Of a DNA stretch of 64,000 nt, positions 60,134 to 62,447 are shown in pieces. Each line of letters starts with the position of its first letter. Position 1 is the stretch's first letter. The DNA is taken from contig CAXHJY010000419.1 in assembly GCA_964016885.1 (NCBI GenBank), positions 1 to 64,000 on the forward strand. Direction: 5' to 3'. Below the pieces are notes generated by a model that did no database searches, was not told the DNA's origin, and saw nothing but the letters and a program-made list of their open reading frames with translations. Position numbers and translations under genes: made by a program. Origin of the DNA: Eledone cirrhosa. Taxonomy: Eukaryota.

Positions 60134-60740
60134 ATATATATATATATATATACACACACATATATATATATATATATATATATATACACACACATATATA
60201 TATATATATATATATATATATACACACATATATATATATATATATATATATATACACACATATATATATATACACATATATACACACATATATATATATA
60301 CACACATATACACACATATATATATATACACACATATATATATATACACACATATATATATATACACATATATATATATATACACATATATATATATATA
60401 CACACATATATATATATACACACATATATATATATACACATATATATATATACACACATATATATATATACACACATATATATATATACACACATATATA
60501 TATATACACACATATATATATATACACACATATATATATATATATATATATACACACATATATATATATATATATATATATACACACATATATATATATA
60601 TATATATATACACACATATATATATATATATATATACACACATATATATATATATATATATACATATATATATATATATATATACATATATATATATATA
60701 TATATATACATATATATATATACATATATATATATATATA
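60134..60740. repeat. (TA)n/(CA) microsatellite between the two ribozyme arrays
   Basis: direct inspection. Confidence 0.97.
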
Positions 60741-62447
60741 TAAATTGAAACAAAATGAAAACGAAATTTCATTTCTCACTCTTAGTATGGCACTTACTTA
60801 AATGTAAGTATGCATGTATACGTACATACATATATGTATACAGACGTACAGTAGCATGCACATATATATATATATACATATATACATACATATGCATACA
60901 GGTACACATACATATATGCACGTATCAGTTTAGCGGCGCTAACGTCGCTTTGTTCGTTTGTAAACAAACTGAACAGCCTGAATTTATGCCATACGGTGTT
61001 AAGGCAACCACGTCACCTTTTTGTTCAACACTGACACAGGAACGATGTACTAGTTTCAAGCTTGTTAGCTATCATCAGCACCGTTTACCCATCTGCCAGA
61101 TAGTTGAACGGTCGAAAGTATATACTTTCCTTATGAAAATTAACGGCTGAGCAGCCTAATTTGCATATTGAGTGAGTTAAATCGGTCAGGCATACCGAAA
61201 ACGATAAATTGAAACAAAATGAAAACGAAATTTCATTTCTCACTCTTAGTATGGCACTTACTTAAATGTAAGTATGCATGTATACGTACATACATATATG
61301 TATACAGACGTACAGTAGCATGCACATATATATATATATATACATATATACATACATATGCATACAGGTACACATACATATATGCACGTATCAGTTTAGC
61401 GGCGCTAACGTCGCTTTGTTCGTTTGTAAACAAACTGAACAGCCTGAATTTATGCCATACGGTGTTAAGGCAACCACGTCACCTTTTTGTTCAACACTGA
61501 CACAGGAACGATGTACTAGTTTCAAGCTTGTTAGCTATCATCAGCACCGTTTACCCATCTGCCAGATAGTTGAACGGTCGAAAGTATATACTTTCCTTAT
61601 GAAAATTAACGGCTGAGCAGCCTAATTTGCATATTGAGTGAGTTAAATCGGTCAGGCATACCGAAAACGATAAATTGAAACAAAATGAAAACGAAATTTC
61701 ATTTCTCACTCTTAGTATGGCACTTACTTAAATGTAAGTATGCATGTATACGTACATACATATATGTATACAGACGTACAGTAGCATGCACATATATATA
61801 TATATATATACATATATACATACATATGCATACAGGTACACATACATATATGCACGTATCAGTTTAGCGGCGCTAACGTCGCTTTGTTCGTTTGTAAACA
61901 AACTGAACAGCCTGAATTTATGCCATACGGTGTTAAGGCAACCACGTCACCTTTTTGTTCAACACTGACACAGGAACGATGTACTAGTTTCAAGCTTGTT
62001 AGCTATCATCAGCACCGTTTACCCCATCTGCCAGATAGTTGAACGGTCGAAAGTATATACTTTCCTTATGAAAATTAACGGCTGAGCAGCCTAATTTGCA
62101 TATTGAGTGAGTTAAATCGGTCAGGCATACCGAAAACGATAAATTGAAACAAAATGAAAACGAAATTTCATTTCTCACTCTTAGTATGGCACTTACTTAA
62201 ATGTAAGTATGCATGTATACGTACATACATATATGTATACAGACGTACAGTAGCATGCACATATATATATATATATACATATATACATACATATGCATAC
62301 AGGTACACATACATATATGCACGTATCAGTTTAGCGGCGCTAACGTCGCTTTGTTCGTTTGTAAACAAACTGAACAGCCTGAATTTATGCCATACGGTGT
62401 TAAGGCAACCACGTCACCTTTTTGTTCAACACTGACACAGGAACGAT
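60740..62447 (-). repeat. about 3.7 x 464-469-bp tandem array, each full monomer with a minus-strand hammerhead ribozyme
   Basis: unit starts at 60740, 61204, 61670 and 62139; ribozymes at 61041-61085, 61507-61551 and 61975-62019. Confidence 0.95.
61041..61085 (-). ncRNA. type I hammerhead ribozyme (first of 3 complete copies), predicted cleavage between 61048 and 61047
   Basis: minus strand AACGGTG-CTGATGA-TAGCT(AACA)AGCTT-GAAA-CTAG-TA-CATCGTT; 7-bp stem I, palindromic stem III ACTAGT. Confidence 0.85.

Follow-up and report, generated by a model that had tools for sequence, protein, structure and literature searches.

A tandem array near the end of a stretch of Eledone cirrhosa DNA appears to be a single insertion of a non-coding hammerhead repeat. 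The stretch, called the window here, comprises the first 64 kb of a 66-kb contig (CAXHJY010000419.1, assembly GCA_964016885.1) from a genome of 3.0 Gb. On our reading, to which we give a probability of about 0.6, the array at 60740–62447 is a non-LTR (non-long-terminal-repeat) retrozyme copied into a (TA)n tract by the reverse transcriptase (RT) and GIY-YIG endonuclease of a resident Penelope-like element (PLE) of Neptune type. It belongs to what appears to be a new non-LTR retrozyme family, likely mobilised in trans by Neptune-type PLEs. A first-pass annotation of the window had proposed a second retrozyme or PLE-LTR-like family at this place; our results support that proposal and sharpen it to a dispersed, non-autonomous family with the hallmarks of PLE insertion.

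The array was first annotated as having a repeat of about 465 bp, and Tandem Repeats Finder bears this out (period 466, 3.7 copies). Its three units measure 464, 466 and 469 bp, with indels as their sole differences, and (TA)n/(CA) tracts flank the array on both sides. GC content is 28% in its 2-kb bin. The frames of at least 150 amino acids that overlap the array are microsatellite frames only, and an open reading frame with RT and GIY-YIG endonuclease, the mark of an autonomous PLE, was not found in it. The insertion consists of one arm, and no partner arm lies between the array and the contig end. Numbering the unit from the first base 3' of the predicted ribozyme cut, its parts are as follows.

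60740–62447, minus strand: single-arm retrozyme array of 3.67 units, running from a 5' end at unit base 2 (62447) to a 3' end at unit base 310 (60740)
60740–60805, minus strand: PLE-like 'tail', between the short 3'-end zone (unit 245–251) and the long 3' end (unit 310)
60818–60926, minus strand: internal TA/TG microsatellite, a predicted long hairpin and the chief cause of unit-length variation
60134–60742, no strand: (TA)n/(CA) tract, the target, joining the long 3' end
62446–64000, no strand: (TA)n/(CA) tract at the 5' end of the array, extending past the window

The anatomy of the insertions is our chief new finding. We compared arms in 40 stretches of C1 (from the first 41 of about 50 listed clusters), picked solely by an exact hammerhead; six regions taken from identical matches and the window were added, giving 80 arms in 47 regions. 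The 3' ends of these arms concentrate at two fixed sites about 60–65 nt apart, with 45 at unit 300–310 (one of them an isolated fragment) and 26 at about 245–251, while eight lie within the unit's internal microsatellite and one elsewhere. Most of the classed ends (61 of 71) run straight into TA-type repeat, and the 5' ends are scattered. Adjacent arms on opposite strands are arranged head-to-head in 27 of 28 pairs, and 24 of these 27 come from 23 of the 40 unselected stretches. All 20 pairs in which both ends could be classed combine one long with one short end, the remaining seven having one unclassed end; the single arm in the window carries the long end. Both 3' ends are also kept in an older subfamily, described below. 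Neither poly(A) nor a common tail of long interspersed elements (LINEs) was seen at arm ends, and target-site duplications, which exceed 4 bp in retrozymes when present, are unreadable because the arm ends lie in (TA)n.

A tail at one end only and an inverted 5'-truncated partner are described as hallmarks of PLEs (PMC8557442), and the tail itself as the span between two internal RT start sites, both target strands being cut and extended (PMC11167929). The arms compared here have the tail, the inverted partner and a microsatellite target, as expected of a PLE derivative. This family, a neighbouring family with a 311-bp unit and the resident PLEs all have the same insertion pattern, and that pattern is the published PLE 'tail' signature. 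The borders of the tail, at unit 245–251 and unit 310, are likely the two RT start sites. Beside some arm 3' ends, short target motifs are reiterated among TA runs (L044, L074, L080, L081), and several flanks hold inverted target duplications (L053, L054), which suggests slippage or template switching at the nick.

A genome search for GIY-YIG gave 10,597 candidates, 150 of which were scored, and from the scored ones 50 GIY-YIG loci were sampled with their flanks. Long PLE frames combine RT with a C-terminal GIY-YIG domain, and the two frames examined for it contain the CX4CX2C linker, a Neptune/Nematis trait tied to (TA)n targeting (PMC8557442). In PLE families B, C and E the 3' region contains a hammerhead-like motif, and both of the two 3' ends lie in (TA)n. 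Inverted PLE pairs (L123, L124, L114/L056) have one long and one short end each, the tail of family B is about 66 nt, and copies of families B and C are 98–99.5% identical. Given this shared footprint, we consider it very probable that PLE machinery performs the insertion.

Among the sampled PLEs we found no autonomous parent. The unit and PLE family A have hammerhead architecture alone in common (the U·U pair, an AACA/AAAA loop and a palindromic tetraloop), and since no sampled PLE shares sequence with the unit, the proposed driver is deduced from the insertion footprint only. All copies seen of families A and B have a fixed U3-A8 core (UUGAUAA, UUGAAAA) in place of C3-G8 (L116, L117, L118, L119, L129, L161–L164). 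At L120 (2275–5562, plus strand), an open frame of 1096 aa that combines RT with a GIY-YIG motif is a candidate intact PLE. The window itself holds a third hammerhead-like motif at about 54870–54930 on the minus strand (CUGAUGA UUUCCUUCGAAU GAAA CAG...CUG UA), with a longer stem III, and related copies come after PLE ends at L124 and L125.

The minus-strand hammerhead claimed for all three complete units is borne out, each reading AACGGUG-CUGAUGA-UAGCU-AACA-AGCUU-GAAA-CUAG-UA/CAUCGUU, with the slash at the predicted cut.

61975–62019, minus strand: first copy of the type I hammerhead, cut predicted after 61982
61507–61551, minus strand: second copy of the type I hammerhead, cut predicted after 61514
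61041–61085, minus strand: third copy of the type I hammerhead, cut predicted after 61048, with the ACUAGU palindrome at stem III and a U·U at the base of stem II
61023–61109, minus strand: extended stem I, about 17 more pairs joining both sides of the cut, drawn from the fold and pair counts; one per unit
61080–61112, minus strand: competing ACCGUU/AACGGU hairpin, private to the sub-lineage of the window and disfavoured in full context

The type I core (CUGANGA, GAAA, UH) is present among three helices, and the fold opens at stem I: stem I has 6–7 bp plus the extension, stem II has 4 bp plus the U·U, and stem III is 1–2 bp with a palindromic loop. A relaxed type I descriptor matched none of 3000 dinucleotide shuffles of the unit on either strand. 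Rfam returned no hammerhead match at gathering score, the best being Hammerhead_HH9 at 18.5–18.9 bits against a cut-off of 52 (E 0.44–0.61); its miRNA matches were dismissed as microsatellite artefacts. The array has more than two consecutive tandem units, each with a type I hammerhead, and its sequence is non-coding, low in GC and dispersed in many copies, the traits by which a non-LTR retrozyme is defined. When the monomer is folded as a circle, the hammerhead is predicted to cap extended stem I, with pairing of about 0.8 for outer stem I, 0.9–1.0 for stem II and about 0 for the competing hairpin.

The U·U pair at the base of stem II, which had been flagged as a possible handicap, is there and is kept at both positions in 140 of 140 segments of a set partly selected by motif. 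It is also retained in the older subfamily and in PLE family A. Judged from the sequences, the U·U is the master state of the family and not decay. An axolotl ribozyme with the same mismatch, HHR_Amex2, is reported to cleave to 22% within 1 h in monomer form and to do better as a dimer (PMC7229834), and ribozymes with a short palindromic helix III are described as active when arranged in tandem but quiet when in a monomer circle (PMC4209133). The ACUAGU of this family and the matching hexamers of the 311-bp family, of PLE families A/B and of family C are all palindromes (four hammerhead types checked). The competing hairpin fared less well. Its two strands, ACCGTT and AACGGT, are present in the window at 61080–61085 and 61107–61112, as first noted, but the alternative fold finds no support as a trait of the family: in the 40 C1 stretches sampled, ACCGTT occurs in 0 of 70 scorable units, in run X1 the window base at 61111 is replaced in more than 99% of depth, and the hairpin wins only in an 85-nt fragment that lacks the downstream strand. 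Contigs from runs X1, X3, X5 and X6 yielded nothing beyond variants, and none from X5 could be placed. With predicted pairing near zero in full context, we reject it as a conserved switch.

A genome-wide copy census, one of the checks put forward in the first-pass annotation, found 10,122 exact copies of the 40-nt hammerhead motif (5160 + 4962) and none of its reversed control, as befits a dispersed family. A 341-nt fragment of the unit gave 40 scored matches, all 100% identical, on C2, C3, C8, C10, C11 and the window contig. The older subfamily (79% identical, unit of about 420 bp, 1277 first-look candidates) keeps the core and stems II and III. The commonest forms of the two subfamilies differ at 10 of 87 positions, with the conserved core and stems II and III unchanged; the ten include one at N7 (the only common core change), one in loop 2 and three at bulges or a stem end. 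Two pairs changed in a compensatory way, from G·U to U·G in stem I and from U·G to A-U in the extension, and one further G·U became A-U. Across 16 chosen variants 97.6% of cells are paired. Units diverge by 0.3–0.5% within a locus and by 3.3% between loci, in a set that includes the six selected regions. A pattern search for other U·U/AACA hammerheads returned one match, of the 311 type.

That neighbouring family lies close to the array.

58263–60141, plus strand: 311-bp hammerhead array, belonging to a separate family whose insertion pattern is the same and lying tail-to-tail with the 466-bp array

Beyond the core no likeness between the two units had been seen, and their best local alignment indeed covers the hammerhead only, with 22 of 29 nt matching and a stem II loop, CUAACAAG, that both have in common. 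The idea of a second family inserted 600 bp from the first stands as to the separate family, and the proximity itself is explained by the shared (TA)n target; the two families also adjoin at L047. The 311-bp family has 1,144 exact hammerheads genome-wide. Its first eight loci are all head-to-head, and in the two loci of which both ends were read, the 3' ends fall at positions 132 and 167 of its unit. On C1 of G000 (L181–L200) it forms giant head-to-head palindromes with up to 16+10 or more units.

We propose that insertion proceeds by way of an RNA intermediate shaped by the ribozyme. Transcripts of an array would probably cleave as hammerhead dimers by way of the ACUAGU palindrome. A released monomer, its ends held by extended stem I, would then be closed into a circle by ligation, and its ribozyme, now alone, would be weak. 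A TA tract would be nicked on both strands by the PLE protein, which would prime at two internal start sites; the RT would read round the circle for a variable distance. Microhomology would link the resulting two cDNAs 5'-to-5', or a single arm would join the target, the case seen in the window. Local lengthening of some old arrays came afterwards. Circular RNA is the template we favour, if only by a modest degree, because linear templates could only shorten arrays. More tentatively, and with a little less than an even chance of being right, the palindromic arrays may be the direct genomic record of double-primed rolling-circle reverse transcription, in which the PLE protein primes both nicked TA strands. 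Its start sites would lie 60–65 nt apart on a ribozyme-made RNA circle, and two multimeric arms would be joined head-to-head. If true, a single mechanism would underlie the mobilisation of retrozymes, the PLE tail and the tandem and inverted structure of PLEs, with a record that can be read in thousands of loci of two unrelated families.

Mean divergence is the same within arms and between them, both in 9 younger loci (0.96% versus 0.92%) and in 10 older ones (2.75% versus 2.72%), and we therefore consider that the arrays were likely born multimeric, from one template lineage. The low divergence of units inside a locus relative to that between loci, given above, points the same way. A different history, in which a monomer derived from a PLE pseudo-LTR (pLTR) is inserted first and expands afterwards into a minisatellite through local unequal crossing-over, follows a satellite route discussed for retrozymes (10.64898/2026.07.22.740005). 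Such growth did occur in places. In the long arrays L202 and L203, both old, there are higher-order repeats of 2 and 3 units that are absent from the opposite arm and are the product of later local amplification, L205 holds at least 22 diverged units, and the old arrays count 108 shared variants against 214 singletons. All three loci are old arrays of the related subfamily that are now satellite-like. A dimeric-circle origin of the L202 repeat was rejected, the opposite arm being 1.7–3.7% from both phases. Against growth as the origin stand the equal divergences over all 19 loci, the 53 singleton versus 6 shared variants of younger arrays, and inverted arms that are both multimeric in copies still identical across chromosomes. 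Local growth thus accounts for late lengthening of some arrays, not for their birth, and as a general explanation it is improbable. Tandem arrays are also typical of rolling-circle DNA elements, and the window holds an RTE-like RT, in a plus-strand frame at 22636–24435. Mobilisation by a LINE such as this one, or by a DNA rolling-circle route, is nevertheless the least plausible of the alternatives and highly improbable: the two fixed internal 3' ends and the long/short asymmetry fit the PLE tail and the resident PLEs, and neither poly(A) nor a common LINE tail was seen at the ends.

A further alternative keeps the PLE machinery and changes the template to an uncleaved linear multimeric transcript, or to linear monomers between which the RT jumps, the hammerhead being slow or a passenger and circles playing no part. 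Here the 5' ends are informative. Pattern matches at the cut site number 89 against 56 at a control 25 nt upstream, or about 68 against 45 (some 1.5-fold) after indel variants were removed by eye, with 8 of the 68 unambiguously at the first base. Such weak enrichment indicates a template that is mostly not a linear cut monomer, hence a circle or an uncut multimer. The window arm does start one base past the cut; we regard this as largely coincidence and reject ribozyme cleavage as what sets the 5' end. An uncut linear template would explain how the RT passes many cut sites without stopping, and weak activity is to be expected from the U·U and a stem III of one pair; daughters of homogeneous source arrays would be homogeneous under this account too. 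It would, however, have arms shrink in each generation, whereas young, near-identical loci reach 4.8+8.9 units in one case and 4+14 or more in another, and the 311-bp family reaches the sizes given above, and the compensatory changes point to selection on the fold. We judge linear templates unlikely.

Several observations nevertheless count against our own reading. The barely enriched 5' ends are no proof of cleavage in vivo. Stem III is predicted to cost about 5 kcal/mol to form in the monomer, and the covariation comes down to two events between two subfamilies, the count of doubly changed pairs being no better than in shuffles (242 of 500). For the PLE PAc, the hammerhead is reported as dispensable for insertion in vitro, its mutants inserting normally and unprocessed RNA being the main substrate (PMC11167929). 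Eight of nine Xenopus retrozyme dimers are reported without cleavage (10.64898/2026.07.22.740005). The 50 sampled GIY-YIG loci and their flanks showed no sequence homology of the unit to PLE 3' regions or pLTR, and both the shared variants of old arrays and the higher-order repeats of L202 and L203 run counter to a single-step account.

Elsewhere in the window, the RTE-like frame mentioned above matches RVT_1 and a PHD finger, and a second RTE-like RT frame lies at 46518–47324 (plus strand). A minus-strand frame at 30060–30294, on the same strand as the 466-bp hammerheads and about 30 kb downstream of them, resembles the first coding exon of a CYFIP/Sra-1 gene, with no Pfam match. Two further tandem repeats are a 27-bp satellite (1–10597, 392 copies) and a 77-bp array (38668–41823, 41 copies).

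The way in which animal retrozymes move, and whether arrays arise at insertion or grow later, is left unsettled in the accounts of PMC7229834 and 10.64898/2026.07.22.740005. PLE mobilisation and circle-templated multimers have both been proposed before in published work. A tail-asymmetric inverted footprint for retrozymes was not found in the literature searched, which included the main texts of those two papers, with supplements and most subscription papers outside it. The 466-bp and 311-bp families supply a footprint of PLE machinery that is independent of sequence homology, and they name two candidate RT start sites and a target. They are young, with identical copies on five chromosomes, and hence suited to an in vitro comparison of circular and linear templates. 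Through them, hammerhead cassettes and long palindromes are set into what are likely thousands of loci.

Among known systems, the closest are metazoan non-LTR retrozymes, especially Rtz_331 and Rtz_353 of the axolotl (PMC7229834), which likewise consist of non-coding tandem units with a type I hammerhead each, in thousands of copies alongside co-resident PLEs. Stem III with one pair and a palindromic tetraloop is as in HHR_Amex1, and the U·U at the base of stem II as in HHR_Amex2. The units described there are 170–400 nt, whereas ours are 420–540 bp with an internal microsatellite hairpin; ours also have (TA)n targeting, inverted two-arm insertions and tail asymmetry, and the words 'tail', 'inverted' and 'microsatellite' occur 0 times in the main text of that paper. 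The family also falls under the definition of vertebrate non-LTR retrozymes as given by Li, Clavereau and Pollet (2026; 10.64898/2026.07.22.740005), lies within their size range of 51–972 bp and shares their PLE link. Their link is drawn from co-occurrence and pLTR homology, whereas ours comes from the insertion footprint, pLTR homology not being found in the sampled PLEs; they favour local amplification, whereas arrays here look multimeric at birth. Chlamys PLEs such as MRC1 (PMC8557442) are similar in being non-autonomous, with multicopy insertions in head-to-tail order and a microsatellite bias, but are described as generally without canonical hammerheads and as sharing 3' sequence with autonomous families. 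Finally, endonuclease-containing (EN+) Neptune-type PLEs (Craig et al. 2021, PMC8557442; PMC11167929) show the same variable 5' truncation, inverted 5'-truncated partner, single-end tail, (TA)n bias and hammerhead upstream of the 3' ends. The family described here differs from them in having no open reading frame, a tail of 60–65 nt in place of their 30–40, and many full tandem units in both arms.
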